NCBI GenBank assembly: GCA_017499595.2
Contig: CM039001.1
Span: 186,001 to 250,000 of the forward strand
Direction of reading: 5' to 3'
DNA length: 64,000 bases
From: Psilocybe cubensis
Taxonomy: Eukaryota
The notes under the pieces are model-generated. The model was not told the DNA's origin. It did not search any database and saw nothing but the letters and a program-made list of their open reading frames with translations. A program made the translations under genes and the position numbers. This document shows, in pieces, positions 8,331 to 34,461 of the stretch. Each line of letters begins with the position of its first letter. Position 1 is the stretch's first letter.

Positions 8331-8553
8331 GCTAGAGCTCAATGATGAAAGGGAAGAAGGGGATGATGGTGTAGGAGATGAAAGGGAGATGCTCAGGAGG
8401 GCGGTTACAAGACTTGTTTTGTCGTCCGTTGACTGAACGGAGGGAGAAGAGGGGACCGAGTCGGTGTCGCTCTCAGAAGATGAGGACTGAACAGCGAGTG
8501 CGCCGGGGAGGAAACGGCCGCAAGCGTCTTGAAGACGAGCCGGAATGGCTAAA

Positions 8554-11088: not shown

Positions 11089-14000
11089 TCATCGACCAGC
11101 CTCCCAAGCATCATCACGTGGAGAATGGGCGTCTAACGTATTCCCATCTGGATCCACCTCCCCCCGTCTCAAAGCATCCTCGTCACTGGATCTTTGCAGC
11201 TGTCTAGTTTGAGAACGTGCCACAGGATTGCTAGTGCGAGCAACAACAGCAGGACTGGGTCTCGTCAGCCCATAGTAAACATCAAGATCCAGGCATTCTG
11301 CATCAGGGTCGTCGTTAGCGTTTCCGTGGTCGTGCATAGGGCGTATCGCATCGGGATTGCGGTTCAGAACAGGATTGGGACGGGTGTTTTGAGCAGTTGG
11401 ATTAGGGCTACCTAGCAAACTTGCTTGGATAGTGCTTTGAAGCCGAAGCCGCCGTCGCGCATTAGCAGCTACCCGTGCCTCCCGGCCAGCCACAGCTGTA
11501 CGCAGTTCACCCGCAACTCCACCCGGCGTCGAACGCAACAACGTGTTGCCAGCATTCCCAGCCACACCCGCGCTAGTCGTATCATCCGCCTCCTGTACCC
11601 CACCAAGATACCGTTGTTCAAAAATGTTCAACTCGCGCTCCAAATCCGACGCCTGGCGCATCATCTCCGCCACCTCAATCGCCCAAAACTCCGATTGGCG
11701 AACAGCAATCCCTCTGAGGTGCTCGATGGACCTTTGCAGCGACGCAATAAGGGCGCGCACCATGACCATCTGCGGTCCTGCAGGCCCCTCTCCATTCCAG
11801 CGAATGTTCTCAGTAAGGCCGTTCAACAAGGTAAACATTTCGCGTTGCAATCTGTCTTGCTCCGCTTCCAACATCTGTATTCGGGGTTGATGTTGGGGTA
11901 ATGTTCTAATAGAGCCTCGGAGGGATGTTGTAATCTCACGAAGGGAGGTTTGGAGCATACGAACATTCCACCTTGGATCATCGGCCATGGAGACAATATC
12001 TCGAGTATCAGATTCAGGCAAGTTAAAGTGCCCCGCAACCATCGCTGAATCCAGATCTGCCACAACTCGCGTGAGCAAGCGCCGTAGCTCTGTACCAGGC
12101 GCAATAAAAGAGTCAAAAGACTGCCTCGTCAGCCCCGCCAGCTGCACGCTCTGTATGCGCAGTTCACGTTGGCGTTGTAGGTGTCCAACGAATTGGCGGA
12201 GGGAGTCTCGCAGCGCTCCGTCAAGGTGGCGGTCCTGAGATAGCGATGTTAACATCGCATTCAAGTCGGCGTACTGTTCGGGGTTTTCGACTGTCTGCTG
12301 ATTTGTTGGTGTTGTGTTGGATTCGGGCGGAAGAAGCGTCGGAGGCTCTGGTCCGGAGGAAGCTACAATGTTCTGGATTAAAAAACTCAAACGCGTAAAG
12401 TATAGCAGTAACCACTCTCACCTGGAGTACGTTCGCCTACATCACCTACAGTTAACCCAGATTCAGAATAGACCCGCATTTGGCGCCGTGGAACAGGCCT
12501 GTTACCAGTGTCAACATTTGTCCTTGTTGGTGTACCACCATCTCCGGCGTTCGCATTAGCATTAGAAGGCGTCAGCACCACATCCGCCATCGGAAGTGGA
12601 ATCTGTTCTGGTGATGCAACAACTGCGCTACCTCCTAAAACAGTAGGTACCACAGTGGGGCGGTGTTCAGAACCAACAGGGCGGCCATGGGCCAACTCCA
12701 ACTCCCGCTGTGCACGCTCACGCTCCTCCCTCAAGAATCGCAATTCACGGAGGGCTTCGTCGACATTGATAGGCATCACTTCTTGATCCACACCATGTAC
12801 ACTTTCCTCGTCATCACTGTCCTCGATGCTACCCTCACCCTCATCCTCTCCAACACCCACACCCACACCCACACCTCTACCCCCACCCGTTTGTACACTC
12901 GCATTCACATTCACACCCGAATTTACTCTCGCTCCATCACGCATATCCACACCCCTAACCACAGTATTCGAATTCGAATTCGATACAGCATCAGCAGCAT
13001 CATCAGCAGCAGCAGCCCGCCCCAGTCCAATAGCCGACGACCGCCCAACAGCGCTCACATTCTCCGCAAAGAACGTATAAACCACACGCGCATTATACCG
13101 CGGCGCACCCGTATGCGCATCATACGTCGTCGTCGTCGAAGGGTTCGGAAGCCAATATGCCGCGCCTTCAGGTGCGCGTATCCTGTTCCTGTTCCTGTTC
13201 CTGTTCCTGTTCCTGTTCCGTCCCAGGTCAACTGCTGTGGCGACTGTCTGGCGGTGTCTTTGTACAGGTCTGACACTGACATTGGGCTGGTTTAATTGTC
13301 GTCGGGCAGGGGCAGGAGCCTGAGGTCTGTTGGGCCTGTATGTACGGAACGGATGCACGTGCGCGTGCGCGTGGGGGGGATGCTGCCGCGGCGCGGTCAG
13401 CAACGGAATGCGCAACTGTGCTGCTGATCCCAAATGATTCTGGTGTGCGGGTGCCATACCCTCATTGACGGCCGTCCGAGTCGATGTAGAATTCGGCCCC
13501 GGCTCTGCATCCCCAGCAGCACTACTCGCGGAATCAACGGCGGCGGCGGCGGCAGCGGCCTCCCGCGCCCTCTGCTCGATCCGCTGCCTAACCATCCGCC
13601 CTCTCCGCGTCTCACTCTCATCTTCCCCATCCCTTCCTGTCATCGACCCTCGCCCTCCTCCCCCACCACTCATGCCCCAGCCCATATTCACCGGAGGATG
13701 ATGCGGAGGAAACGGTATACTCAAACTCAAACTCAACCCTGGGGCAGGGGGTGCATGCCTCGTTAGCTGTGGCGGAGTGGGAGGGGGAAGCGTCGTAAGA
13801 TCAATATCGATGATAACGTCGGGATAAAAAGGGCGGTGGCCGGGCGATGGAGTTGTGGGGTGCGCATGCGCATGCGCATGTGTATGCGCATGCGCATGCG
13901 CATGTGTATGCGCATGTGGATGTGCGTGTGTATGTGCGTGTGTATGTGCGTGTGCGTGTGCGTGTGCATGTATGGGAGCAGGGGCAGGAATAGGAATACC

Positions 14001-17000
14001 ATGGTACCCCAAAACGGGCGGGTGGACGTGCAGGGGCGCGAGTCCAGGCGCGTTATTAGGTAAATCGAGGTGTTCAGTTCGCGGTGGTACTGGTGTATGA
14101 CTCGGAACACTCCTTGTCGCTATCATGCGTGGTGTGTGTTCACGCTCAGCATTACCTCCCACACCCACTGAACGTGAACCTCCACCTCCAGAGGAACCCG
14201 CACCTACAGAAAGGAAAAAAAAAAAGAAACTATATCAATACCAACATCAGACCTGATCGCATCCGGACCCAAAAATACAAATAGACCGAGAGTAAAAGTG
14301 AAAGCGAAAGAGAAAAAAACAAAAAAAATCAACACACTTTCATCGCCTCGTGCCGAGCCCACAGACATCGCAGCACTCGTATTAATAGCCGGCGGTACAC
14401 TCCTACGCCGAGGAACAGGCTCCAACCTCCCTTGCGCATTATACCCAAAGTCAAACGGCAGCGTTGGCGGGCTCACAGGCTCGCCAGGAGCCGACATACC
14501 CATACCCAGACCGGGAGGATCCTGCGGTACAGGTATCCAAGCGCCATTATAGTACATAAGAACAGGCCAAGGCCATGCTCCGCTCCAACCTACCGATCCA
14601 GCTCCAGCTCCAGCACCAGCACCAGCCTGCATCGGACCCAACTCATGCTCAGGCTCCGGCTCATGCGCATGCTCCGGCCCAGGTCCACTCCTCATCAGCT
14701 CCCCCATCACCCAATCCACCTCCACAGGACCCACATCCCGATCCCACATCCCCAAATCACCCACAACCCCTCTCACAATCCGCTCCGCCAGCTCACGGGG
14801 CAGCGCATGGAGATCCATCGTTATTCCCGGGTGCAGCTGCTCTACCCGCTCGCGGATGATCGTTATCTCTTCAACTGTGAGGCGGTTCGCTGGCGGTGGT
14901 GGTGGTGGTGGTATATGCGGCGACACAGGGGGCGGGGATGGGGCGGGTTGCCTTGCTGTTTCCGTCGGTGTTCCCATTTGTCCAGCTGCAGTTGCAGTTG
15001 CAGCGGCACCACCACCACGAGTCATCCGCTCAAGCAGACTCTGCACCATTACCCCCCCAGAAGCAACCCTCTCAGCACCAAGCACCTCTCTCAACAGCGC
15101 CTCCGCCTCCTCTTGGGACAACGCCGCGCCGCCGCGCACCTCACGCACCTCACGCAAACGGGTCATGACGCGGGCCAGCTCTACCGGCGTTACCCGTCCC
15201 AACCCCGACCCCGTCGTGCGCGCATCTGACGCACCAAGCTGCTGCTGCTGTGGCGGCAGCAGGGGTGGTGGTGCTGGTGCTGGTGCTGGTAGTGACGGTG
15301 GCAAAGGCAGAGGAGGCCGCGGCAGGGTAGGTCCACCATCAGGAAAATACGCCCCGCTCTCCCAAGTCCACCCAGGATAATACCCCCCAAAATCCCGAAT
15401 CATCAATTGCCTCCTCGCCGCCTCGACATGCGGCCCACCGGTCAGCGCCACGTCCCGCCCCAGCACGTCCTCTATCACGCGCTGTGCCTGCGCGGCTGTT
15501 AGCCCGAGGTACATGGGGTCACGTCCTGGGTAGAGCGCCATTGCGCGCTGTATGAATTGTCCGATTGGGGCTTGTTCTTGTGCTTGTTGGGGGCTTGGCT
15601 GTTGCTGCTGTTGCTGCTGCTGCTGTTGTTGTTGTTGTTGTTGCTGTTGCTGCAACTGCTGCTGCTGCTGCAAGTGCTGCAAATGCTCCCACATCTGCTG
15701 ACGTCGCCGCAGCAGCTCCTGCCGATCCGTTGGAAAGCTGATTCGGGTGCTCAGATTTGGATTCGGATTCTGGGTAACCACGTTACCCGTGGTGGTGGTG
15801 GTGGTGGTGGTGGTGGTGGTGGTGGTGGTGGTGGTGGTGTTGTTTGAGTTGTTTGAGTTGTTGGCACGAGAGTGGACCGGAAATCGTGGTACAGACTCCC
15901 GAATAGCAGCGTAGAAATTCTTACAATAAAAAACATTCGACGCGCGCGCATCCGCACATGGCGTATACCGCATACCAAGGGTATTGCCACTATAATCAAA
16001 ACACAGAGTACATTGCATTGTCATGAGAAGATGTATTGAACAGAGAACAAAAGACGGAAGAAAGGAGTTGTGGACTCACCATACAGCACACCCGACACAT
16101 TCTCTTATACATCCACATACAGCTCTTATAGCCCTCCGTGCCGCTGCTCGATGTTCGCGGGTATAAGCTGGCTGATGCATATCGCGCTGCTGGTGCGTCT
16201 GCGAGGATCGAGATGAAGACGGGTCGGCCACAGGAGCGGGGCGAGAGGAAGACGCCGCCGCCGCCGAAGACGACGATGATGATGAAGACACATCTTCCAG
16301 GAAATACGACGCATCCATGGGGACAACGACACCTTCTGCCGGACCATCTGCAATATACGCGTACGTCGCGTCGTTTCCATCTCCTAGCGCATCCCTAACC
16401 CTGTCCCCAATCCCAATCCCACTACCGCTTGCATTTCCACTCGTGCTACTATCGACATCCACGCCCACATTCCTGCCTGGACCGACACCAACACCGACAC
16501 CGACACCGACACCCGTACCAACACCACTATCAACCCGCACCCCAAGTACACGCTGCTCTATACCCGCACGCGAAGGCCTAATAACCCCTCCAAACCCAAA
16601 CGCGTGCCTTGCGCGGGGTACACCACGAACATGGATAAACGCACCACAACCTGTACTTTTTTCTTCTTCTTCCTCTTCTTCCTCTTCGGTTTCTGTACCT
16701 TCATCTTTCGCCTTGCCTTTCCCTTTCCCTTTACCATCATGTTTTTCAGTTCCATTTCCCCGACTATCCGTTTTGGAAGTTTTGGAAGAAGAAGAGGAAG
16801 AGGGGATCGGCGCACCGCACACGAGGATGTACCCATCTTCCTCTTCTTCTTCCTCCTCCTCCTCCTCTCCCTCTTCCTCCCGCACCTCCTCTCCAACATC
16901 CCGTTGCACACCCATCCCCATCCCCACCATCCCACCCACAGCCCCCTCCCCGCGTCTTACCCTATTCGACATCACACCCACCGCATCCCACATCCTCAAA

Positions 17001-19471
17001 CTTTCCATCGCACCTCGCGGAACGGGTAGCGCGCGAACGCCCTGGTTCGGGGCTGGTATCGCGCTTGGGCCGGGATGAGCATGAGCATGAGCATGAGCAG
17101 CTGGAGGTGGTCCCGACAGGGCTGCTGTCGTCGTAGTTGAAGTTGAGGTTGGTAGTGGTGCTATAGCCGTTGTCGTTGTTGGTACCGTTGCTGTTGCTGT
17201 TGCAGCATCAGCTGCCAACGCCGACGCCGACGCGATCTCCCTATCCACATCCGCAATAAAGCTCCCAGTCGAACTGGAACTCGTACTCGCGCCACTAACA
17301 ATCGCGCGCACATCCATTCCAACCGTCCTCTCTGCGTCCAATTCATGTTCCAGCTGTACCTCACCCTCACTCTCACCTTCGTCACCATCGCCCTCGCCCT
17401 CATCATCCGCCTCACTATTCCTCCACTCATCCAACTCTACAAGCAGACGCCCAGCAGCCTGCGCAACGCGCCTATCATCCCTAGAAAGCAACGCACCATC
17501 ACCATCCCCCTCCCCCTCCTCCCCCGCATCTCCAGACTCTTCGTCCACTTGCTCTCTTCCCACAAACCCATCACGCGCACTCAAATCATCCCTCGATCTC
17601 GACCTCGACCTCGACATCGACATCGACATAGACCTCCCCAAAGCCCCCGGTATAAAAATCAGACTACCAGTACGCCTCCGCCCACGTCCTCCGCGCGATC
17701 TCAACCGTCTGATCGGCGCATTCTCCGCCGTATACCGCAAATGCGCTATAACATCCGACAAGGCGCTCTGCATCTCCTCATCATCCCCGTCTCCGTCTCC
17801 GCCCTCGCCCTCGCCCTCGCCCTCACCCGCACCCTCTCCACCTCCACCTCCGCCTCGAACTTCCACATATCCATTTTCACGCACAACAAAATCAATATCA
17901 ATCTCACTATCCCCATCCCCATCCCCATCCCCATCCCCATTAAAGGGGTCCAAAAGAGGCGGCTGCAACTCATCCAAATCAGCCGAGGGATTGGTGACGG
18001 CTGTACCTTCCGTGCTGCTAGGGTCGAGGTCGGTGCCAGAGGGCCAAGGCAGAGGATGCGGATGCGGTGACGGCATCGGCACCATCTCAGAGACAAATCC
18101 AATCGAACGATAAAATTCCGGCGACACCGACAACGTCGCTGACATCAGCGCCGCCGCTGCTGCTCCTCCTCCTGCTGCTGCTGCTGATGATGATGATGAT
18201 GCTGGGTCCGGCGACGACGATGGCAACATCGACGGCGGCGGCGGTGATGATGGTAATCCACGCCCATCCCCCGGATCGAGATGCCCATCGTCCGCCCACG
18301 CCCACGCATCGTACTCATACTCCGCCTCGTAATCCGGGTCGAATTCTCCTGTATACGCATCCTCTCCGCGCGCCCACGCCTCCTCCTGTCCCGCTCCCCG
18401 TCCCTGTCCGTGTCCATGTCCATGTCCCGGTCCAGCACCAGCATCCCACCCCAAGCTCACACTCACATCATCCAACCGCGGATGCCCCATAATCCCCGCA
18501 TTCATCAATATCTCCATCTCCATCTGAGTGTGAGCCGTAAATGGCCCGTCCACCATGTCCTGCTCATCTCCATGTACATGCTCATGCGGGCCCACGCGCA
18601 CAGCGCCGCGTCGGCGCAGACGGGACGCCTCGCCTGTCCGCACGAGGTCGGAGAGCACGATCGTGTCGTCTGCGTCTGTTACTGTTACTGCCATTGCGAC
18701 TGGGAGTGGTGGGGGCGGGGGTTGTGGTGTGATAGCTGGAGGTGGTGGGGGTGGGGGTGGGGGTGGCAGAGGGATAGTTCCTGTGGTTGAATTTGTCGTA
18801 TTCGTTAAAGAGTTAGCTGTGGATGACGCGTTTGTCGTAGTCGTAGAAGTAGTAGAAGTATGCGGGATGACGGGTGAACTTGATGACAGTGTCGATATCG
18901 ATGGTGGTAATAACGAAGCAGACACAGCAGGAGATCCATAACGATGCGACGAAACACCTCCACCCGCCCGTGCCTCGCCATCCAGCCACTCGCGCGGCCC
19001 ACCCACCCCTCCTCGCGACTCAAACAACCGCGGTGCGCGATCCTGGTCCCGGTCCCGCCCCTCCGACGCGCTGGACGACGTCGATGAGCCCGAGAGCGAC
19101 ATCTCCATCTCCACAGAGGAGACATATGAAAGTGCAGACTCCGTCGAGGACGAGGACGTGGACGTAGATGTGGACGACAACGAGAGAGACCTCGTGCGCG
19201 TCGTGTGCGGTCCCGTCGGGGTGGTGCTTCTGTTCGGCTCCTGTGCCTGCTGTCCGACGTGTTGTTGGTCTTGCTCGTGTCCCTGTCCTCGTTCGTCAGC
19301 GCGTCCCTGTACTTGCGCTTGTGCTTGTTCTTGGGTTAATGGGGTGCGGTCAATTTCAATTTCAGTGTCAGGTGAAAGCGGAGGGTCGAGTGATGTCGAT
19401 GCTGTCGATGTGGCTGATTCTGCTGTCGATGCCGACGTCGATGTTGAAAGCGACGGTAGTGGAAACACCAT
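11089..19471 (-). CDS. Giant (~2,699 aa) low-complexity protein with a dispersed Yippee/FAM72-like Cys-rich zinc-binding module; 4 exons
   Basis: Exons 19471-16080, 15989-14338, 14203-12422 and 12362-11089 join through GT-AG introns in consistent phase (total 8100 nt). Motifs: YILVCG, GCGAFIHVRG, VVVPMDASYF, CGCIRECVGCAVCGNTLGMRYTPC, YTFFAENVS. Confidence 0.72.
13181..13219. repeat. Coding (cctgtt)n hexamer repeat encoding RNRNRN
   Basis: Direct inspection. Confidence 0.9.
15789..15839. repeat. Coding (ggt)n microsatellite encoding poly-Thr; a poly-Gln tract lies at ~15600-15670
   Basis: Direct inspection. Confidence 0.95.
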
Positions 19472-20349
19472 CGCTCATCTGTGCGTGTCCTCTTGCGTCC
19501 TCTTGCGTTGCGTAGCTGATTCCAATAGAAACGTGTACAAGTGTAACGTGTAAAGCGTGTAAGACGTCCGGTTTATACTCCCAGTGATACACTAAGCGCC
19601 GAAAAGAAAAAAAAGAAAAAACGACCTGCTCGCGAATCGAACCATTACATCTCGTCGCGCATACATGCCCCAGCACAGAGCACAACATAGCATACGCACC
19701 TATTTTCCCACACCAGTCCTCCTCCAGCACCCAAAATCACGTCCAAGAATGTCAAGTTAACAGCGCTGTGTCGCGCGACGACGACGACGGCGGGAAGCGA
19801 AAAAGTGGGTGGGTTGGGGTGGTGAAAGGGATTTTGCATCCGCTTGGCATGAGGTTGCCCCATGGCACGTGTGATTACATAATAGATACTAAGATAGACA
19901 CTGAAGACAGGCGGAGTGTAAATGTGCGGCGTGTGCCGGACAACTTTAAGTTTAGTTGTTATCGCTGCGCTGATCATCTGGGGATGATAGCTGCGGAGTC
20001 AAGACTTTACTCGTTGGGCCTGAGAAGGTGAGATTGCATGTACGAGATTGTAAGTAAAAGCATGTTGAACATGACTAGTTGGCTGGTGAAAATATGTAAG
20101 GTTGTGAGCCACCGCAAACTCGCTGGAGAAGAGGATCTCGCATAAAGTATTTCTGATACACCTAAATTTGAATCAGCCGTCTCACAAAATCTGAGAGACT
20201 TCACCACCTACGTGTCTATCTATGCATGCCAATCACATTTTTTCGTTCAATACTTGCATGGACTGGCCGGTTCAAGAAAGTTCCTACTATGGCCATTGAA
20301 GACAAATAAGCGAACCAATGGACCATGTAGGCTTGCTTTGGATTCCAGA

Positions 20350-21300
20350 TGCCCCAAAAGGAAAAAAAAAAAATTGAAAGAAAAAATTGGCCGCTGCATT
20401 GTTAGAATCCGTCCCCATGGCCCATCTCCACTTTTCCTTACATTTAGCTTATCAGGCCACCCACTTGAGCCACACCACTCAAAGCGCAGATGTGCCATCC
20501 AACCCCCCTCAAATCCATATAAATAGCCACCAAAACCACCTCGCACACTCATCAACCCAATTCCACATCGCACCACAACACAACCCAACCCAACACAACA
20601 CAACCGCCTCTTAAATGGAGATTAATCTCCCCTACCAACCTCTCCACCAGCAGCAGAAGCAGCAGCAGCAGTACCCATCAAACACACACATCCCCAATCT
20701 TTCCAGAAGGTTTACACTCACCCCATCACCATGTCATAGGGTCCCAATCACCCAACCCTCTCCGCTCTTTCATTCTCAATCACCCGCCCGCCTCGGCCAG
20801 TGGAAGTACAACCTACCCACCACTTATAAACGCCTCCCACACGGCTGGATTTACAAGACAGAGTGGGCTGGAACGCTGGAATTGGCGTATGCAGTACTCT
20901 GAGAGATCTAAGCGGTGAACTAGGGCGTCTTTCCAGAAGGTTTATGGTGTCTTTCCAGAAGGTTTATGGCGTCTTTCCAGCAGGTTTATGGCGTCTTTCC
21001 AGCAGGTTTACACAATCTTTCCAGAAGGTTTACCGCCTCTTTCCAGAAGGTTTAGACCATCTTTCAAGAAAGTTCACCCAAAAACATGGACAAGGACAAC
21101 ACACCTACAAATTCCCAGCAGACACGATTGCCTGGGATGGCATTGATGTCGAGGATATCATAACACTTCAAGTTCATGGGGTTTATAATATCTAGTACAG
21201 AATCTTTCCAGAGGTGTATTGATATTTTGATATTTTAATTCACATGTACAATCAAATCTAATTCAGTTATTTATACTTACATCTCTGTGTGATAATTTTA
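20350..21300 (+). repeat. Copy 1 of a ~1 kb dispersed repeat (probable non-autonomous TE) with a 21-bp minisatellite; left boundary approximate
   Basis: Aligns by eye with ~24450-25375; tandem units of tctttccag(a/c)aggttta at 20928-21070. Confidence 0.85.
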
Positions 21301-21638
21301 AGAGCTGTTACAACTAGCAAAAGAATATTTACACTGGGAGGTCATTAATGTTGAAGATGTCATACTATTTCAGCAGAGTTGGAGGTGATTGTCTTTCCAG
21401 TAGGTTTACATCTACTATAATTCACATGTATACCCCATCTAACTCAGATATTCCAAGGTCTCTCAGTAACTGGCTCTATGCCATAATTTAAAATACTCAA
21501 CCATACTATATAACTGCGCAAAGCTCATAACAAAAAACTCATGATATCTCAAAGATTTGCTTTTTATTGCTTATTACTATCATGCGCTATCTTTACATTT
21601 TTTCTCCAGCCGCACATCATCTGGAGTGCATTAGTAGT

Positions 21639-21941
21639 TTAAGGCCGAGAACCAATGCTATTTGATGACCCAAAATTGAATGTACCCCCATTTCCAAAAT
21701 TGAACCCTCTAGTTCCACTGTTGTAAGAACCCGCGCTGAACGCCCCATTGAAAGCGGATCCTCCGTTATTTCCAAAATTGGATGCACCGTTGCCAAAAGC
21801 GGATCCAGCGTTGCCAGCATTAAATCCACCATTGCTGTTACCAGAGTAAGTAATACCCTGTGGAAGCGCTGTTGTCTGCTGCACGAGCATAATTGTGATT
21901 GCCATCATGACTGGCGAAATTAGTGACACAGTGGACTTCAT
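21639..21941 (-). CDS. Small secreted Gly/Asn/Ser/Phe-rich protein, paralog 1 (100 aa)
   Basis: Hydrophobic signal peptide ending TTA/LPQG; mature part GITYSGNSNGGFNAGNAGSAFGNG...; two paralogs nearby. Confidence 0.85.
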   Translation of the reverse strand: MKSTVSLISPVMMAITIMLVQQTTALPQGITYSGNSNGGFNAGNAGSAFGNGASNFGNNGGSAFNGAFSAGSYNSGTRGFNFGNGGTFNFGSSNSIGSRP

Positions 21942-23202
21942 TGTTTTTGGACTATTTGATAAGAGGGATGTGTCAATTAAAAACTGTTCTCCAATGATTA
22001 CTCTGAAATAGAAATACATACGGCACTCAATATATCTGAAGAGCGTTAGGTGAGTGAATGTGCCAACATATAATGTTTGGCTTACCAGAACTCTCAGTGG
22101 GTAGAAACCTGGTGTAGACGAATTTATACAATGTTCATTATATAGCGAAAATGGAACGGCCCAGAGCCTTATTTGAAAGATGTTAAAGCTTACATCAAGT
22201 GTTTCTTTGTGGAGATTCCGTTCCTGTTTGGGGAATTGGACATTTAGTCCGTACTATTTCTTCACTAAGGGATTTGCAAAGACGAAGTCACTGTGACAAT
22301 GACATGGCGGATACCACTGGCCCTGGCCTGAAGAAGTGCCGTAGGCTGTAGCTCGCTTTTCCTGGGTCTAAAACACCCGTAACAGCCTACATCATTAGCG
22401 ACTAGTTAAAGCATACAAACCTTATAGGTAATAGACCCTAGAATGTTCCTCCCCTTGTTTGATTATGGAAGGACGCTTTAAATAACTCGTCTCTTAGTGT
22501 TGCCTATGAAATATCTCAAAGATTGGCTTCGAAGACTGTCTACCCAAATTTTAGCTGAAGGAATTGCAACCGCTGGCGCTGATGAGTTAATGGTTCACAA
22601 ACTACGGCGACATTCATAATGTTGGTCAGCGTACTACGTTACCTAGTCCTCTCAGATTGTCTACAATAATCTAGATTCCATTGCTGAGATAGACTACCTC
22701 AGTACTTCCTGAATCTCATATATATTAGCAGACGTCAATATTAAACACAATACAACGTCTTAAAATCTGGAACTATTTGGGAACTTTTGGAAGTCCATTA
22801 ACTTGTAGTATTGATGGTTACGATAGGACCACTTATCAGCTTATAGCAATAATGTTGATAGATCGAGGTGACTTCGACATCAGACTCCATCTCAGTCATT
22901 GAGTTATTATACGACTAGTTTAACATTTGGATGGTTGCTCTTATCGGACCCAGAGGCAGAGGAAGAGTCAGAATCAGCATGCCAGTGCTTACTTTTGCTT
23001 ACATACTAGTTCCCTTGATAACGTAAGCATTATCAAGCGGAACTTGAACAACCTCGGCTGATTCCGGACAACTTGGGCAGATATGTACAAGTTCAAATCA
23101 AACAGTCTGAGATATTTTGAAACGATGGATTTTATATTGCTATATCATTCATATGCACTGTTTTAATATCCAGACGCGCATCATCTGTATGGAATCTCAA
23201 AA

Positions 23203-23505
23203 TCAAGGACGAGATCCAATGTTGTTTCCCGATCCGAAAGTGAATGAACCCCCACTCCCGAAATTGAAGCCGCCAGACCCACTGTTGGAGGTTCCGGCGT
23301 TAAATCCCCCGTTAAAGGCTGATCCACCGTTGTTACCAAAGTTTGAAGCGCCGCCTCCAAAGGTGGATCCAGCGTTACCGGCATTAAATCCACCGTTGTT
23401 GCTGCCAGAGTAGGTGATACCCTGGGGAAGTGCAGTCGTCTGCTGCACGAGCAGGATCAAGATCCCCATCGTGACCGACGAAATCAGCGACGCAGTGGAC
23501 TTCAT
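23203..23505 (-). CDS. Small secreted Gly/Asn/Ser/Phe-rich protein, paralog 2 (100 aa)
   Basis: MKSTASLISSVTMGILILLVQQTTALPQGITYSG...NNIGSRP; colinear with paralog 1. Confidence 0.85.
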   Translation of the reverse strand: MKSTASLISSVTMGILILLVQQTTALPQGITYSGSNNGGFNAGNAGSTFGGGASNFGNNGGSAFNGGFNAGTSNSGSGGFNFGSGGSFTFGSGNNIGSRP

Positions 23506-24449
23506 TGTGTACGGGATATCTTTGGTGCTATATGTCGATGCGACTTCGTCAGTCAGAATGGACATGGCATATAAATGTGTGGAAAAGGGCATACATACGT
23601 ATGGCGATAGGCTAGTGTATATCCGAAATTCTTTGGTAAATATGTGCGACTCTTGTAAGATGTATCTTACCTGACTTCTCAATAGGTAGAGTTCTGGGGT
23701 AGATAAATTCATACTATGTCCATTATATAGGGAAAATTGAGCAATGTGAAGTATTGTTAGAAAATGAAGCTTCCTTCAGGAGACTAATCACAGAGAGATT
23801 AAATGTCATATAAATTGATCTCTTCTCCAGACTTCCAATTTCGGAGTCTTTAGTTTGATTTCGTAGTCTCAAATTATGACTGGATTGGCAGGGCGTGTCA
23901 CTTTGAGAATGACATGAAGTTCGACATGGGTCCAGACTACTCGAGCTTGATTTGCCTATGGAACGCTAAGGACAGTGCTAATGCATGCAAAGTCAACGGA
24001 TCAAGAGTTAGACACCCTTTCCATGAACACACCAAGGATTCTCAACATCTTTCTTGATAATCGCGTTTCCTAATCTGCTTAAGAGAGTCCCGACGTGCAA
24101 CATTCAAGGAAGGGAGTCGAGACCAGGTCACCAAACAGGCTAACCTCATTCATTTTATTGTGAAATTCCATAATTGGACCTCAATTGAGCCTGGAGTTTA
24201 GTATTACTTCGATTCAACAGGTGGAAGATTCGATTGCGGTAAGTTTCTATCTGAATTTTACCAAGTCCGACGTGACAAAGTCAAAGCGGCAAAGGCATTC
24301 ATGTTGATAATATCATAATTTATAACACTGCATGACGATTAAAGTACAGAATCTTGCCAGAAGGCGTAATATACATGTTCAATCAAATCTAATCAAATTA
24401 CATATACTTACATAGGACCCTGGAAGCTCCCCTAGAGGCCTGTCTGGCC

Positions 24450-25375
24450 CAAAAGGAAACAAAAATTGAATGAAAATCAGTGGCCACTGCCTTCTTAGAA
24501 TCCATCCCCATGGCCCATCTCCATTCTGCTTTACATTTAGCTTGAAAGGCCACCCATTTAAGCCACACCACTCAAACCGCAAAGGTGCCATCCAGCCCAC
24601 CTCAAATCTATACAAATACCCACCTTACCCACCTCCCATACTCATCAATCCCACATCGCACCCAACACAACACAACACAACACAACACAACCACATCGCA
24701 AATGGAGATCAATCTCATCAACCAACCTCACAAGCAGAAGCAGAACCAGCAGCAGCAGCAGCAGCAGCAATACCCATCAAACACACACATCCCCAATCTT
24801 TACAGAAGGTTTACACTCACTCCATCACCATGTCATAGAGTCCCCATCACACAACCCTCTCCGCCCATTTATTCTCAATCACACGCCCGCCTCCAGTCGA
24901 AGAACAATATACCCATCACTTATAAACGCCTCCCACACCGCTGGATGTACAAGACAGAGTGATCTGGAATGCTGGCATTGACGAGCGTGGTGCTCTGAGA
25001 GGTTTAAACGGGGAAGAAGGGTGTCTTTCCAGAAGGTTTATGGTGTCTTTCCAGCAGGTTTATAGAATCTTTCCAGATGGTTTACACCATCTTTTCAGAA
25101 GGTTTACCGCCTCTTTCCAGAAGGTTTAGACCATCTTTCCAGAAAGCTTATCCCGAAAACATGGACAAGGACAACACACCTACAAATTTCCAGCAGACAA
25201 GATTGCCTGGGATGGCATTGATGTCGAGGATATCATAACACTTCAAGTTCATGGGGATTATATTATCTAGTACAGAATCTTTCCAGAAGGTTTATTGATA
25301 TTTTGATATTTTAATACTACACATGTACAATCAAATCTAATTCAGTTATTTATACTTATATTTCTGTGTGATAAT
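24450..25375 (+). repeat. Copy 2 of the ~1 kb dispersed repeat; left boundary approximate
   Basis: Aligns with 20350-21300, including the MEINL...QQQQYPSNTHIPNL ORF start and the 21-bp minisatellite. Confidence 0.85.
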
Positions 25376-25594
25376 GTTCAAGCATTGAGTTGTGGAATTG
25401 GAAATGATGGCTCTTGTGAAACAAACCAACATATCTGTGGATAATAATCCATCACATATTATTATAGTTGTTCAAAACTCAAGACAAGCATCCTGTGCTA
25501 TTTCCACGATAGATTTTTCATTTTTATTTTTCATTTATATGCGCTGTTTCCAAATTATTCTGCAGCCGCGCATCATCTGGAGTCTATTGGCAAA

Positions 25595-25930
25595 TCAGGG
25601 ATGATTGCCAAAACTGTTTCCTGATCCAAGACGAAATGAACCCGCATTTCCGACTGTCAAGCCTGCATTCCCACTTTTGTTGCTGCCATAGGATCCAATG
25701 CTATATGATCCTCCTCCATTGAAGTTTGATCCCCCTGCTCCCCCATTGCTATTAAAGCTGGACCCACCATTGAAGTTTGATCCCCCTGCTCCCCCATTGC
25801 TATTAAAGCTGGTCCCACCGTTGCTGCTTCCAGAGTACGTGATACCTTGAGGGAGCGCATACGCTTTCTGCACAAATAGCGCAGAAATCACTATCATGAC
25901 CGACGAAGTGAATGATGTAGTGAACTTCAT
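25595..25930 (-). CDS. Small secreted Gly/Asn/Ser/Phe-rich protein, paralog 3 (111 aa)
   Basis: MKFTTSFTSSVMIVISALFVQKAYALPQGITYSG...; internal 17-aa duplication SFNSNGGAGGSNFNGG. Confidence 0.85.
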   Translation of the reverse strand: MKFTTSFTSSVMIVISALFVQKAYALPQGITYSGSSNGGTSFNSNGGAGGSNFNGGSSFNSNGGAGGSNFNGGGSYSIGSYGSNKSGNAGLTVGNAGSFRLGSGNSFGNHP

Positions 25931-27409
25931 TGTGTGTAGTCTCGCTGGTGCAGAAAACTGGATAAAGTAATCAATCAGCATGGCTGTGGTATACAGTCTG
26001 AGCAGGTAAATGTATACGTACAGGCAATGTGCTGTAAAGCGATAAACCAATGTATATCTGAAACTCCACATTGAGCAATGACCTCATTCTGTATAATTAA
26101 ATATACCTGATTTTTGGGAGATAGAAGTCTGAAGTACATCGACTCACACTCTCACCTTTATATAAGAACTCGGAAACACTTACTGAAGAGACGCATTGTC
26201 TCGAAGCTTAGCTACAACTCGATTAGAAGCCATATCAAATGCTCCCTTCTCCAGGCTTAGATCTCTGATTTAAGGTTTGGCTTGAATTCCATGTCTACTA
26301 CAAGACCTCAAAACTAACGGAAATTATGTCTGTATGAAAATAGTGTGACATGGAACATAGACTTAGTCTGTAAGAGTTTAGTAAGAATCTAAGAATTCTC
26401 GGTCAAGACTCAACACAGAAACAAATTGAATTTTCTCACATTCAACACCGTATCTGAATGTAACACTACACCTCAAAACTCTTTCTCTTAAATTGAATTT
26501 TGCGCGTGCAGTTAACTTGATAATCGAGTATTTGATTTGGACCGGTGCCAAGGAACCAAAAACAGCCAGCATTGAAGTTCAATGCTGGCTGTTTTTGTTC
26601 TCAGGAAGCGTTCATCATTGAACGCTTCCTGAGAACGAGAGATACCGGTTAACATTTCAACTGCCAAAACACGGACTACACACCAAGGTGTTGGGTGGAT
26701 ACTATTGCGAGCATGGACGACAATATGGGACTTCCCGCTACCCCCGCCCCAGAGCCTGGACCCATTAGCAAATATGTAGTCCAATGGCATTGTAAGCGAT
26801 GACATTTGGGCACGAAACCGCCTTAAAGAGCTGTAAGCCACAACGCAGAAGAAACAAACGTACTCCGGGAACGACGTTAGAACCAGGTCAATGAGGGTTG
26901 AACCTGACTTTATCTACAAGACGAAAGGTATCAATCAGTAACTAGGCCTCCTGATCACAATCTTGAATGAATGGAAGACTGCGCATTGAAACTTAGAAAA
27001 TTTTTAATCTAGTTAACACCAACGTTGCACCTCATCTCGTTATCGCCGCCTCTTTATCGGACAAAATGTACTGAGAAAGAATGGTGTTGGTTCATTGATC
27101 TATTGACCAATTGGGCAGAGAATAAGAAGCGGCATAGAACTGGCGCTTCATATTCCACCTTCTGGACAGAATTCTAGCAACGTATTCTGTGTCACTCATA
27201 ATGTCTACCTCACGCAAGTACACAAAGTTTTTGCACTTGTAAAGTACATCTTCGACACTACTTAAGACTAGCCATAGATTATTAGTATACAATTTATTCT
27301 CACAAGAACGAATCCTTAAGACAATTAACTCTTAGATGGGGATTAATCTCTACAATCAGTCTCACTGCAGCCCGCAGAAGTAGCAGCAGAACCCAGACAT
27401 AAGGAAGTT

Positions 27410-29600: not shown

Positions 29601-30837
29601 TATCCGGTGAATATGGGGACCTCGATGATGTAACGTACCACATTGGAAGTGCAAGGATGTGTAGCGAAGAATCAATTGGCAGATGACAGATTATGTATTC
29701 CCTAGTTTCAAAGGAATCACCTGATGAAGCAGAGATAGCATTTTAAGTCAGAGGTATTTAGGGCAGTTCAGACAAAGTACCTACTACGGTACATTCACAA
29801 ATGGATTTGATTGCCGCCGCCGCACACCAACTTCGCTCATCATGTCATAAATTAGTTCAAATAGTTTGGCCCTTTTCATAAAAGTCGACTGACAATATAG
29901 CATTGTAACACGCCCCCGAGTCAATGCTCTCCCTGAGAGTGTTGTCAATGGGAATGCAGTGGGTTGCTCGGATCTTTGGTAGATGAAGAATGGGGCTATT
30001 CGGGGCGATCCAGCGCTTCAGTGCCAATTGTCTTTGTTGGAGCGTTTTTCTTGTCACCTAAAAGAATATGTTCGATCAACAGGATATACAACGGAAGCTT
30101 GAAGCGCTGAGAAAAAACGTTGGAACGCATGGCGGTGGTGCTCGATGGTGGGAAAAAGGAAAAAATGCTGCTGAATATTCCCATCACGTGGTCAAGATGG
30201 GCCCCGCGTCTGGCAGAGATTCCAGCTTTGGTTTAAGACTATAAGTGTTACAGAAGTTAAACCTTTGATTGATGGGGCGAGTTTCCACTAGATGACGAGG
30301 GTGAAAGACGGGTGTATCTATTAGTAAATAAATAATTGCCGAGACCATATATTTTCTCAATGCGAGTGAGGGAAGGATAGGTGTCCTTCACTGACCTTTA
30401 TAACCCCAGATATACTTTTTTCCGGTTAATTAACACCATCCATCGTAGTCCATTCGGATTACTCTATTAAGTTCGATCCTGCCGTCATACAGCTATGGCT
30501 ATTAGAATAATTTAGCGCCCGTGATGTGCTTTCAAAAGCTCTGAATCGATATTATGCTGTTCGAGAAGCTGAGCCGAATGGTCTTATACATTCAACGTGT
30601 AACTGACTGCTGGGGTCAACGAACATCAAGCATTTCATTAATCTTCTTCCAGAAGACCCCATTTTTCAGCTCCAGAACTTCGTTTAGCGGAAATGTGATT
30701 CCTTGCTGGCTCATTTGTAATTGTCACTTGGCATCGATCGAGTCATATATGACCTACGTCATACTGTTATGGCTTCTATATAACATTTTTCTAACCGTCC
30801 ATAATTATCGCCTATTATCGCTCCAGACATACATCCA

Positions 30838-32220
30838 ATGACTATACTAGCTACGGAACTTAAACCGACCTGCGATGCTTCAATTACGCACAGCAACGAT
30901 GATGACTACCATACCGGGTTCATGGCTTCTTCTCCTCTCCTCCGTTTACCTTCACCTTGGGACGAATGGGAGGCCATCCTTGACGCCGCTGTCCAGAAAA
31001 AATTACAGCTTGGTGACAAACCTGATTTGACCGTGGCTGAGGAAAATGCTTCAAAACAATGGAGAGGGGATGTTCGTAAGGTAAGTGAAAGTTCCGATTG
31101 TGGAGTCTGGCTATCATATATAACATAGTCTTTAAAGATGAACACACTATCCGTCGCAGGACTCGAGAAATCGGAGGCGACCCTCCAGCGAGCTCACGTT
31201 GTTCTCACTTATATCCTTCACTTCTACATCCAGACACTTCCCGTATCTGAACCAATCTTGGTTCCCAGGACGATCTCAATTCCTCTTCTTTACGTCTCTC
31301 AGCTACTGGAAGTTCCACCAGTCATCACATACGCCGACAGTGTACTTAACAATTGGGAATATATCATTTGGCCTCAAAAAACCAGCGAACGCCCTGCAGC
31401 AGACAACCTACGATCTCAGACAACATTCACGGGACTCGTAGATGAGCACGAGTTTAATCTTGTCTCGGCGCGCATCGAGTTCCTTGGTAGCGATGCAGTG
31501 AAATTAATTGCCTTGATGATGGACCAACTGGCAGTCGGGGATTCGGACGCAACCAAACAAATCACCGAACATCTCCGTCAATTAGCTGGTGTCATATACG
31601 CCATGAAAGACGCTTTGCTAGACGTCATGAAGAGATGCAACCCCGATGTTTTCTATAATCAGGTGCGACCTTGGCTACGAGGCGAGGATTCTGCAGCCAC
31701 TGTGCGGAAATGGAAATTTGAGGGAATCGACGAGCATCCCGATCTACGCCAGCCACAGTATCTGTCGGGACCCAGCGCAGGACAGAGTTGCTTGATACAT
31801 TCCCTTGACGCCTTCTTTGGCATCGACCACGGTGCGTCAAATCACGGCAGCACCTCCCTCATGACGCGCATGCAGGAATATATGCCGAAGAAACACCGTG
31901 AGTTCCTGAACAACATCAAAATGTCTCCTCGACCGTTACGCAATTTCGTTCTCGCCTCCGTCGATGCGTGTATCCTAGCAGAGTTTAACCACGCAGTCGC
32001 TGCCCTTAAAGCATTCCGGGACGCCCACATGATCATCATCACTTTCTTTGTTTTGGGTCCCGCCAGAAGAGCTGAGAAGAAGGATCAGGCTGGTCACCCC
32101 TCAAACGTCGGAAACGATCCTATTAAAGGGACAGGTGGAACAGACCTTGTCAAATTTTTGAAGGAAACTCGGGCGCATACGACAGCTGCAATGATCGATA
32201 CCAATAGAAAGATGGATTAG
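30838..32220 (+). CDS. Indoleamine 2,3-dioxygenase (~441 aa), intron 31081-31137
   Basis: LQRAHVVL, PPVITYAD.VL.NW, FTGLVDE.EF.LVS..IE, P.VFYNQVRPWL.G, GPSAGQS, MQEYMP..HREFL, FRDAH (heme His) and KGTGGT. Confidence 0.93.
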
Positions 32221-32489: not shown

Positions 32490-34461
32490 TTATTCTTCCT
32501 GAAGTTCGGTATATGTGGATATGGTATCCCAGCTACGCCGCCTACGAAATGCGACCGCCCTCTCGACAGTTTCCTGCGAAATAGCTAATCTCGTATAATA
32601 TATCCCGTATTCTGTAGACATGGTGCGTGAAGAAGGGTATGAATATACGGAGGCGTCAGATAGATCTAGTGCAACGAGGGACCGATGGGCTGGGTCTATT
32701 GGCTCAAGGATGGAGGAAGCAGATGAAATAACCGACAATCTATGCGTCTGAACTGCCATTTGTACCAGATGTTGCTTGAACGGCGCCATCATCTCTACAA
32801 CGCGCTCGTTTTGGTTCTCAAGAGGGACTTGAGCCTCAGTAAACCACGTTAAAGTCTGGGTGGAGGTAACATAACCAGTTAGAAGTACACAATATAATTT
32901 GATATAAATTACCTGGTATATCGTGCTCGCATTCTGCGGGGTAACGCCTCTGGCCAACGAATCCAAAATCCAGGTCGCCCTCCGTTCGTCTTCCACTGTA
33001 GTGTGTGTCACTCCTTGTGCATGGAGCATTGGGTTCGTGATAAGGTTTGTCCACTCATCACAGTAGAAAGACGGTCTTGATTGTTGACAAATGACGTGAT
33101 CTAGTTGTTCACGACAGGATAAAATCAGCATTCTTACTGATTTGTGCCAATACGCTGATTCATCGAGTTGTAAAAGCGCTGTTTCCGCAGCAAAAAGAAG
33201 GGCCAGTGCGTTGCGTGGGGTAATCATTTCATTTAATGATTCTAGTAAAGCAGAGTGAACAGCCGCCGGCATGGATCCAAGCTCTTGTGTGCACCATTGA
33301 GGACCGAACATACCCACCAGGGCTCTACGCGTTCCCCGTTCCAGTATTAGATCTTGGATATCCGGCTCCATAGCGAATGCCAAAATTCGCGGAGCTCTAC
33401 GAGCGCAATGGCGGCATGAACAACCCCCCAACGCGACCATCTGCTTCCACTTTCCATCGATCAACCGAGCGTATGAGGATGCAGACATAGGGGCAGAGAA
33501 GCACCCATGCAGCATGTCAGCTATGGTGTATGACACTATTGCAGATTGCAATGTTGGAATTCGAAGATATTGCGATGCACGGTAGAGGGAAACCGTCGTG
33601 GAATAGTCAGCGGTAAACTGAGTGAGTGGAAATTGTAGGAGGCCCGTGTATATGAAACGTAACGTGAAGTCCACAGTCACCGGATTGAACGGAGGTGAAG
33701 GCAGAGGAACAATGAACAACTTCTGCGGTCGTTGATGAGCAGATTCACGTTTTTCAAGACGCGATAGAAGAATGTCGCGAAAGTAAGGCGACCGTGCCGC
33801 AAGAATCGACTTATGGCATGGAAAAACGCACACAACTCGACCTTCGTCATCGACATCACGACTGTGAGACGCGGGTACAACAATTTGCATATCCGAGAAG
33901 AGTCGCCATTGTAGCAAAAAATACAGGTCGTTACGGATCTTAGTTGTGCTCATTTGCCGCAAAAGAACTCGCTTTCCAGTGTACTGATCTGTAATACCCT
34001 TCCCAAAAGGTAGAATTAGGTTGGAATACTGAGTGCTCGTCCACAATCCCATGATTTCCCGTTCTGTTTCACTGGATATAAGAAGGTTGAAAGAATGTGA
34101 ACTTTCAGATGGAAATGAATCAAGGTAATCACGAAGTTTGCCGACACCAAGGGGTTCATTAGGAAAGAATCGCTCATAGGAGTCGGTCGTCGCTATAGCA
34201 TTAACTGACACCTGAAGTGCGAACTATAACAGTGGGCTTTGCATTGGGAAATAACGATCAACGCACTGTTCCAAGCTTGTCTCTCCTGTCCCCCTCGTCA
34301 GAAATCTCACTTTTGCTCCTTTCACGCGCGACAGTTTCCCAGATAAAGGGAGGTAGTGCGTCCTCTAGATCTTCCCTCCAAGTAAGCATCGCCGTGTCCA
34401 ATGCTGACTGGAGAAACTCCACAGAGATGCTGAGCGAGCCATGATCTTGAGCAAAGTCCAT
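32490..34461 (-). CDS. BTB/POZ-domain protein; 5' end uncertain
   Basis: LFSDMQIVV...FPCHKSILAARSPYFRDIL...FTLRFIYTG...LYRASQYL; upstream exon 34266-34461 splices in frame. Confidence 0.8.

Follow-up and report, generated by a model that had tools for sequence, protein, structure and literature searches.

Three tandem genes of Psilocybe cubensis encode secreted, cysteine-free Gly/Asn/Ser/Phe-rich peptides: an orphan family of possibly self-associating extracellular chains

Three paralogous genes, called g1, g2 and g3, lie in tandem on the minus strand of the 64 kb stretch of Psilocybe cubensis DNA analyzed (the window). The family is very probably real and secreted, and an orphan against the protein libraries and the metagenome searched. 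In the best reading, tentatively put forward, the products are extracellular self-associating peptides of the "sticker-and-spacer" type, which could coat hyphae with a cross-beta or gel-like layer. Three minus-strand paralogs featuring a signal peptide and the motif LPQGITYSG were found where the original prediction had placed them.

The g1 coding sequence (21639..21941) encodes 100 amino acids plus stop, and codons 1-25, corresponding to the signal peptide, span 21941-21867. g2 (23203..23505) also encodes 100 amino acids plus stop, and its product is 79% identical to that of g1. g3 (25595..25930; 111 amino acids plus stop) is a divergent paralog, sharing about 50-56% identity with the other two. 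Start codons were set at the conserved MK(S/F)T. g3 hosts a tandem duplication of 51-nt units (25713-25763 and 25764-25814, minus strand), which are 96% identical at the DNA level and encode two 17-aa units; this is the 17-aa duplication previously noticed in the third paralog. By unfiltered tblastn and a six-frame motif scan, exactly three family members were counted in the 64 kb. A weak hit of g2 (tblastn, E 0.25) at 8271-8438 was dropped, as the local ORFs lack a signal peptide and are not G/N/S/F-rich. A 4.1-kb segmental duplication, involving g1 and g3 each with a 950-bp downstream element, was also considered. It is doubted, because the element is 84.5% identical whereas the synonymous sites of g1 and g3 are about 70% different. 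The downstream element is either younger, homogenized or constrained.

All three products start with a signal peptide of 25 residues, with K at position 2, a hydrophobic core of 12 residues (mean Kyte-Doolittle value 2.2-2.5) and T/A or A/A at positions -3/-1; the n, h and c regions fit. The cleavage site was deduced from the -3/-1 rule, and a helix modeled by AlphaFold2 at residues 10-25 falls within the signal peptide. LPQGITYSG is located at the predicted mature N-terminus and is invariant in the three copies; in the alignment six of its nine codons differ synonymously, and none non-synonymously. The mature chains are 75, 75 and 86 amino acids long. A length of 75-85 residues had been assigned to the region following the start motif; the figure is right, if referred to the whole mature chain, nonamer included. 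G accounts for 27-32% of residues, N for 16-19%, S for 16-21% and F for 7-12%, and G, N, S, A, F, Y and T together make up 86-91%. Sequence entropy is 2.85-3.03 bits. As anticipated, Cys is missing and charge is almost nil: each chain has no Asp or Glu, 1-2 Lys plus Arg and 0-1 His, for a net charge of +1 to +2. A C-terminal motif fitting the consensus (F/L)x(F/V)-G-x-(G/A)-G-x-F-x-(F/L)-G ... G-(S/N)-(R/H)-P (21642..21704 in g1, minus strand) is kept in all paralogs.

Phe dominates among the aromatic residues, and the ten aromatic positions of g2 are all aromatic in g1. Aromatic residues are more evenly spaced than in composition-preserving shuffles, the observed evenness being reached by 150, 859 and 416 of 20000 shuffles (values not independent, as the chains are paralogous). 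The regular spacing originally described is thereby upheld; the actual gaps (2-12 residues in g1 and g2, 5-18 in g3) are somewhat wider than the interval of 4-8 residues given there.

The ratio dN/dS is 0.10 for the pair g1-g2, 0.19 for g1-g3 and 0.33 for g2-g3, with dS ranging from 1.1 to 2.0 (1.18 for g1-g2), so that synonymous sites are near saturation. In the low-complexity mature part of g1-g2, taken alone, dN/dS is 0.08. Differences between g1 and g2 at codon positions 1, 2 and 3 are 10, 14 and 45, respectively (chi-square p = 1e-7). Coding sequences are 62-77% identical, more than the 5' flanks (48-60%); indels involve whole codons throughout, and the stop position is conserved. The paralogs are old and subjected to purifying selection along their whole length, and conservation operates at the level of residues, not of composition.

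Flanking DNA is conserved at discrete sites. A TATATAA box is found about 200 nt upstream of the g1 ATG (22138..22144, minus strand), and boxes at 23723-23729 in g2 and 26158-26164 in g3, on the same strand, fall in the same column block of the alignment. The start-codon context is common to the three genes. A conserved candidate splice donor, GGTA(A/T), follows the TATA box by about 50 nt (22084..22085 in g1, 23669-23670 in g2, 26105-26106 in g3, minus strand), which suggests a putative 5'UTR intron, the splicing of which would remove the non-conserved upstream ATGs. At 15-22 nt past the stop codon, an 18-nt block, CCAGATGATGCGCGGCTG, is found at 21607..21624 (g1), 23171-23188 (g2) and 25563-25580 (g3), minus strand. 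It shows 0-2 mismatches among the paralogs despite the near-saturated synonymous sites, and matches three times in the window, against 0.02 expected by chance. The block could make up the 5' side of a 6-bp ATGCGC/GCGCAT stem, the six pairs of which are kept in the paralogs with no compensatory change; a conserved 3'UTR hairpin was considered on these grounds, and a structure is not established.

The protein libraries feature a gene model for g2 only (P0004, 120 aa), which takes as its start an upstream ATG (23565) that is not conserved. That a single gene of three has a public model, and that the same low-complexity DNA also has overlapping ORFs in other frames, could denote chance ORFs or decaying duplicates. 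This is hardly credible, since the selection tests contradict it (low dN/dS at near-saturated dS, differences biased by codon position), as do the lack of frameshifting indels and the preservation of stop position, TATA box and start context. g1, g2 and g3 are taken as real genes because of the dN/dS values, the codon-position bias, the in-frame gaps, the shared TATA box, start context and 3'UTR block, and the one public model.

No family was assigned to the three products by searching Pfam (E up to 10) or NCBIfam, and a profile search of PDB sequences retrieved only ficolin-2 chains with E of 6 or more, regarded as noise. Among 5.8 billion clustered proteins and 1.84 billion representatives the g2 model itself was found, and no accepted relative. 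The same model was the one candidate out of 19 returned by the g2 homolog search, and again the one out of 901 obtained with a three-sequence profile; among longer proteins, none of 8000 scored was a homolog. HMMER detected in the 1.84 billion representatives the same model and a single bacterial repeat protein of 3145 aa (E 8.6e-06), the latter regarded as a chance match, aligning only at an ALPQG(V/I)TY stretch. The best ESM Atlas score (0.75) was under the lead threshold, none of 120 pattern matches in a metagenome scan was confirmed by tblastn, and nothing relevant on the family or its motif was found in the literature. The initial impression that no known family is involved is borne out by these searches. 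In sequence terms, g1-g3 are a new family of a familiar general kind.

AlphaFold2 predicts a disordered chain (mean pLDDT 48.3), without a confident fold; the sole element outside the signal peptide is a weak hairpin over the conserved FNF-GNGG-TFNF tract (strands 80-82 and 86-88, pLDDT about 50). A complex of four mature peptides, predicted without controls, scored 0.03 (mark 0.32), and is given no weight for or against self-association. Self-association is tentatively favored because of the lack of Cys and acidic residues, the low charge, the G/N/S/A/F/Y/T make-up, the even and conserved aromatics, and the disorder. According to this reading, the signal peptide would be cleaved and peptides of 75-86 amino acids would act outside the cell as self-associating chains, in which the evenly placed aromatic residues would serve as stickers. 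Short alternating strands, I-T-Y at the N-terminus and FxF-turn-FxF at the C-terminus, may stack between molecules, and the G/N/S spacers, rich in potential NG and GG turn sites, would allow kinked cross-beta or gel-like contacts. Hyphae would in this way acquire a hydrated coat or matrix that does not depend on hydrophobins. The whole-length purifying selection fits better with a packing that engages all segments than with a fast-evolving defense peptide. Against self-assembly, the peptides are short and the genes only three, and Asn/Gly-rich chains may stay soluble and disordered. Moreover, weak positive charge, lack of acidic residues and tandem paralogs suit glycine-rich antimicrobial peptides equally well, and mushroom genomes already have hydrophobins for surface coats.

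Class I hydrophobins are small secreted fungal proteins forming amyloid-like surface layers; their hallmarks are eight conserved cysteines paired in four disulfides, and a Pfam domain. Unlike these, g1-g3 have no Cys and no Pfam match at E up to 10, and the surface-layer role is here proposed. Closer in make-up are LARKS, kinked cross-beta hexamers of G/S/N and aromatic residues such as GYNGFG and SYSGYS, in which FG-repeat nucleoporins are enriched by prediction (10.1101/153817). Aromatic patterning is a recognized determinant of the phase behavior of low-complexity domains (PMC11820118). The likeness to LARKS and FG domains drawn in the original prediction is fair on composition. As LARKS-rich, prion-like and FG domains (FUS, hnRNPA1, FG nucleoporins), g1-g3 are Gly/Ser/Asn chains with evenly patterned aromatics, near-zero charge and predicted disorder; local G-aromatic-N/S-G strings resemble the published hexamers, and the traits by which LARKS/prion-like sequences are recognized (low-complexity G/S/N/Q plus aromatics, predicted disorder) are present. 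LARKS and FG domains, however, occur inside the cell as portions of large proteins, with Tyr or FG predominating and no signal peptide, whereas g1-g3 are secreted, low-complexity over the whole mature protein and Phe-dominated. The likeness is compositional, without sequence homology. A more specific and rather unlikely version of the self-association reading makes g1-g3 the secreted counterpart of such cohesive domains: free peptides would undergo phase separation, or assemble into reversible gels of the kinked cross-beta type, to give a cysteine-free hydrogel or fiber coat, with LPQGITYSG and the C-terminal hairpin as nucleating ends. If true, an extracellular functional low-complexity assembly of the LARKS/FG type would be described in fungi for the first time.

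A fungal precedent for peptide coats had been seen in the Rep1 repellents of Ustilago maydis, and according to PMC3133707 these are indeed secreted peptides forming amphipathic amyloid fibrils on aerial hyphae. g1-g3 are similarly small, secreted and Cys-free, and a hyphal coat is here proposed for them. They differ from Rep1, as repellents are described there, in being three separate genes, each encoding one peptide without Kex2 sites, and no sequence similarity to Rep1 was found in the protein-library searches.

The main rival, somewhat doubtful, is that g1-g3 encode glycine-rich antimicrobial or defense peptides acting on bacteria, fungi or grazers, like nematode NLP peptides and caenacins. 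The original prediction had named an antimicrobial role, a fiber system and a peptide precursor with no preference among them. The products show the general traits of the antimicrobial class (small, secreted, Gly-rich, net cationic), with a low charge. The tandem array of diverging paralogs, one with an internal duplication, and the lack of acidic residues are in keeping with it. Nematode NLP and CNC peptides are Gly/Tyr-rich antimicrobials encoded in recently expanded clusters, and those of the NLP-29 cluster and the caenacins share with g1-g3 the layout of a signal peptide ahead of a short, weakly cationic, Cys-free Gly/aromatic peptide, and the tandem paralogs (PMC2453101). Against this, the chains carry very little charge for their length, and neither an amphipathic helix nor any other membrane-active element was predicted by AlphaFold2. 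Asn at 16-19% is not known as a feature of glycine-rich antimicrobial peptides. The low dN/dS of the mature part contrasts with the positive selection reported for the nlp-29 cluster in PMC2453101, where the peptides are Gly/Tyr-rich; g1-g3 are Gly/Asn/Ser/Phe-rich and under purifying selection, and homology is lacking.

Disorder could also be the functional state. A soluble or wall-associated spacer or protectant, possibly O-mannosylated, would hold water or lubricate without any ordered assembly. Ser plus Thr amount to about 20-24% of the mature chain, N-glycosylation sequons are 0-1 per chain and mean hydropathy is negative (-0.44 to -0.58), all consistent with such a role, as is the predicted disorder. 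Assignment to the GPI/PIR wall-bound class finds no match in Pfam, and C-terminal GPI signals and PIR repeats are absent; chains end with ...IGSRP or ...FGNHP, without a GPI-type hydrophobic tail. As conserved, evenly spaced Phe is unexpected in a purely hydrophilic spacer, and conservation concerns residues rather than composition, this possibility is quite unlikely.

The invariant nonamer directly following the signal peptide, with its silently changed codons, invites yet another reading, that of a precursor giving rise to shorter products: a RiPP, a repeat protein cleaved by Kex2, or a hormone-like peptide with the N-terminal nonapeptide. An N-terminal Leu-Pro followed by Gln would suit dipeptidyl-peptidase trimming and pyroglutamate formation, and a cytochrome P450 gene is located about 1.5 kb upstream of g3 (roughly 27.4-29.7 kb). 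Mushroom genomes abound in P450 genes, so that adjacency weighs little. Fungal RiPP precursors (dikaritin, MSDIN, borosin) have tailoring enzymes nearby (UstYa/DUF3328, prolyl oligopeptidase, methyltransferase) and a short core with leader or follower; ORF-level Pfam scans of the window did not reveal this arrangement at g1-g3. Scanning 13 + 7 + 75 ORFs across the window detected only P450, IDO, BTB, RT, Ras and a weak HsbA, though intron-split genes may be missed by an ORF scan; prolyl oligopeptidase, methyltransferase and UstYa were absent among the 20 neighboring and 75 further ORFs. KEX2-processed repeat proteins (KEPs) of Agaricomycetes are small, secreted and of largely unknown function (PMC9769878). 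g1-g3 share with KEP and Rep1-type precursors the signal peptide, and differ in that dibasic [KR]R sites are missing in all three mature chains and core peptides are not repeated. The peptide precursor option of the original prediction is weakened by the lack of Kex2 sites, by the absence of RiPP-type enzymes among the neighbors scanned, and by purifying selection spanning the entire chain and not a short core; it is improbable.

Fungal genomes encode thousands of orphan small secreted proteins, few of which come with a testable mechanistic hypothesis. g1-g3 are an unusually clean case, free of cysteines and acidic residues, and combining a secretion signal and residue-level purifying selection with a chain composition otherwise known from intracellular phase-separating or amyloid-like domains. 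Should they be neither self-assembling nor antimicrobial, they would be one more lineage-restricted secreted family; if antimicrobial, they would represent a new class of glycine-rich mushroom peptides. Self-assembly, if it occurs, would extend sticker-and-spacer/LARKS behavior to the fungal extracellular space, add a third hyphal surface material to hydrophobins and repellents, and provide a short, easily synthesized model peptide.

The genes g1, g2 and g3, encoding small secreted peptides rich in Gly, Asn, Ser and Phe, are three paralogous ORFs arranged in tandem on the minus strand, at positions 21639-21941, 23203-23505 and 25595-25930, and specify products of 100, 100 and 111 aa, respectively. 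The tandem family originally predicted at 21639-25930 is thus found as described. Coding bounds were set by choosing the start codon that all copies share, together with its sequence context (ACACAATGAAGT), so that the proteins begin with MK(S/F)T. Exactly three copies were recovered from the 64-kb window by an unfiltered tblastn search, by looking for PQG[ILV]T[YF] in all six frames and by a scan for G/N/S/F-rich frames. The g1 and g2 products are 79% identical, while g3 shares 56% (MAFFT alignment) or about 50% (tblastn) of residues with g1. The 17-residue duplication noticed in the third paralog corresponds to two 51-nt units in tandem, at 25713-25763 and 25764-25814, that are 96% identical.

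Judged from their sequences, g1-g3 are genes. Nei-Gojobori dN/dS ratios are 0.10 for g1-g2 (dS 1.18), 0.19 for g1-g3 (dS 1.96) and 0.33 for g2-g3 (dS 1.09). In the g1-g2 comparison the ratio is 0.08 in the low-complexity part (alignment columns 35 onward) and 0.13 in the signal peptide plus motif, and the former is therefore constrained at least as much as the latter. The 69 differences between g1 and g2 are distributed 10/14/45 over codon positions 1/2/3 (chi-square p = 1e-7), and all the gaps separating the paralogs span whole codons. As read from the alignment, six of the nine codons of the invariant LPQGITYSG vary among paralogs, and all the variation is silent. Identity is higher in coding (62-77%) than in upstream regions (48-60% over 250-280 aligned bases). 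The alternative, that these frames are not genes, is barely tenable.

A TATATAA box is found in all copies 203-234 nt upstream of the ATG, and is followed about 50 nt downstream by a conserved GGTA(A/T) resembling a splice donor. From this candidate donor we infer a 5'UTR intron in each gene, the removal of which could eliminate non-conserved upstream ATGs in each copy. The only public gene model in the trio (P0004, 120 aa) covers g2 and starts at one such ATG, while annotation seems to be lacking for g1 and g3. Past the stop codons, at a distance of 15-22 nt, the three genes share an 18-nt block, CCAGATGATGCGCGGCTG, with 0-2 mismatches (21607-21624, 23171-23188 and 25563-25580, minus strand), which does not occur elsewhere in the window. 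Its conservation looks striking, given that synonymous sites are near saturation. Another conserved block, about 25 nt downstream, can base-pair with it over 6 bp (ATGCGC/GCGCAT); no compensatory changes in the putative pairing were found among the three genes, only one-sided ones. The 18-nt block may serve in mRNA stability or localisation, or act at the 3' end.

After the g1 and g3 stops, at distances of 340 and 217 bp respectively, lies a noncoding element of about 950 bp (20350-21299 and 24445-25378). Over 968 aligned bases its copies share 84.5% identity, whereas synonymous sites of the genes are far less alike (about 30% identity). The copies differ by indels of 1, 5 and 22 nt, which argue against coding. 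The element may be a repeat or transposon fragment of younger age, a segment kept alike by homogenisation, or a regulatory block under constraint. It includes arrays of a 22-nt tandem unit featuring TCTTTCCAGAAGGTTTA (20928-21076 and 25024-25150), found also at scattered sites. The unit has 19 matches with up to 3 mismatches, versus 0.2 expected, 18 of them on the plus strand. Its core TTCCAGAA is an inverted TTCnnGAA, a form that we take to be that of heat-shock-element or STAT-like sites.

Four consecutive long open frames (442, 615, 623 and 1132 codons) with no Pfam match lie on the minus strand at 11089-19474; GC content is 56-58% at 12-20 kb versus about 43% around the trio. The translation of one frame (16076-19474) is of extreme low complexity, acidic and rich in Ser, Gly and Pro, with Ser/Thr runs, poly-Pro, poly-Glu and GD, GE, HA and VG dipeptide repeats. 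A reverse-transcriptase fragment (4482-5111, minus strand; RVT_1, E 1e-13), embedded in a series of long minus-strand frames spanning 2.7-6.4 kb, is probably part of a retroelement. On the other side, a cytochrome P450 gene (27410-29690, minus strand; exon fragments matching PF00067) directly adjoins an indoleamine 2,3-dioxygenase gene (30805-32220, plus strand, tabulated as 31129-32220; PF01231, E 6e-100), so that an oxidase and a tryptophan-catabolic enzyme are encoded beside the trio. Further along are a BTB-domain gene (32490-34223, minus strand), a second P450 fragment at about 50 kb and two Ras-family exons at about 56 and 59 kb. A weak, sub-threshold HsbA-like match (40449-40781, plus strand; PF12296, E 2.3e-4, scoring 22 bits where the cutoff is 33.5) would, if real, place another gene for a surface-active secreted protein about 15 kb from the trio.

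The first 25 residues of each product make up a predicted signal peptide: Lys occupies position 2, the hydrophobic core reaches 2.2-2.5 (Kyte-Doolittle mean of the best 12 residues), and the invariant Leu of LPQG is preceded by T-x-A or A-x-A; AlphaFold2 models a helix at residues 10-25. By the -3/-1 rule, cleavage is inferred to occur before LPQG. The shared signal peptide and invariant LPQGITYSG start had both been predicted, as had the lack of Cys and near lack of charge, and these features hold in all three proteins. Mature chains, 75, 75 and 86 aa long in g1, g2 and g3, contain Gly (27-32%), Asn (16-19%), Ser (16-21%) and Phe (7-12%), with no Cys, Asp or Glu, one or two Lys+Arg and at most one His. 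Their mean hydropathy ranges from -0.44 to -0.58, and they carry 0, 0 and 1 N-glycosylation sequons. A hydrophilic spacer of the wall or matrix, possibly O-mannosylated, is a distinctly unlikely role; the proteins have no hydrophobic C-terminal tail, hence no GPI signal, and differ from GPI/PIR wall proteins in having neither anchor signal nor repeat. That the chains are precursors of processed peptides is less likely still; dibasic sites are missing in all, and unlike KEX2-processed repeat proteins (KEPs) and repellent precursors they lack Kex2 sites and yield a single peptide per gene.

The aromatic residues of each chain have more even spacing (gap coefficient of variation 0.41-0.49) than those of its shuffled versions; among 20000 shuffles, 150, 859 and 416 were as even for g1, g2 and g3, in tests that are not independent of one another. 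All ten aromatic positions of g2 are aromatic also in g1. The C-terminal third features in all proteins the motif (F/L)x(F/V)-G-x-(G/A)-G-x-F-x-(F/L)-G, and the chains end with G-(S/N)-(R/H)-P. The mature chain is best described as predicted disordered. In the AlphaFold2 model, built on the three-sequence alignment, mean pLDDT is 48.3, pTM is 0.15 and no residue exceeds 70; outside the signal, its sole element is a weak hairpin that strands 80-82 and 86-88 form over the C-terminal motif.

The original prediction recognised no family for these proteins, and the searches agree. No family was found in Pfam (E up to 10) or NCBIfam, and a PDB sequence profile search returned only noise (E of at least 6). 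A word-indexed library of 5.8 billion clusters yielded only the g2 model itself (1 of 19 and 1 of 901 candidates), and no longer forms were present among 8000 scored. Run in full against 1.84 billion representatives, HMMER retrieved the g2 self match and a 3145-aa bacterial repeat protein, regarded as a chance hit, as the match is limited to an 'ALPQGVTY'-like stretch. The best ESM Atlas score (0.75) was under its lead level, none of 120 patterns matched in metagenomes was confirmed by tblastn, and literature searches turned up no description of such a family. Composition filters and short protein length limit the sensitivity of these searches. Since paralog dS exceeds 1, orthologs are expected in related species, and their apparent absence from the libraries searched probably reflects small genes left unannotated rather than true restriction.

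Known classes do not accommodate the trio. Besides differing from KEPs and wall proteins, the products lack the Cys residues of hydrophobins; RiPP-type tailoring genes were not found near the trio in an ORF-based scan of the window, of a kind that intron-rich genes can escape. Only general class features are shared with glycine-rich antimicrobial peptides, and the same is true for LARKS (kinked cross-beta low-complexity segments) and prion-like domains. The trio is therefore a new sequence family.

Each product is a real, secreted-type, predicted-disordered, uncharged Gly/Asn/Ser chain, with evenly spaced aromatics and residue-by-residue conservation. By analogy with known systems we tentatively propose, as a possibility short of probable, that the peptides self-associate outside the cell. 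Phe and Tyr would act as stickers binding the peptides to each other, short alternating strands, I-T-Y towards the N-terminus and FxF-turn-FxF towards the C-terminus, would stack, and G/N/S spacers rich in NG and GG turn sites would serve as linkers. Hughes et al. solved LARKS segments, G/S/N-aromatic hexamers such as GYNGFG, SYSGYS and STGGYG, which adopt kinked cross-beta sheets; FG-repeat nucleoporins are described as enriched in predicted LARKS (10.1101/153817). The patterning of aromatics is reported to be among the accepted factors that govern how prion-like domains behave (PMC11820118), and secreted repellent peptides are described to form amyloid on Ustilago hyphae (PMC3133707). The main competing view, that the trio encodes glycine-rich defence peptides, is rather unlikely. 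The gene layout is comparable to that of nematode NLP/caenacin clusters, described as Gly/Tyr-rich, clustered and positively selected (PMC2453101), but the trio has very low charge and is under purifying selection. Purifying selection over the whole length fits better a packing role, as self-association would entail, than an arms-race role.

The general kind is familiar: small secreted peptides that are rich in glycine and of low complexity, or small secreted proteins of fungi that are orphans. Mushroom genomes commonly hold orphan secreted families. What is unusual in the trio is that a secreted protein has a G/N/S/F composition free of acidic residues, that selection acts so strongly on a low-complexity chain, and that a UTR block is conserved.
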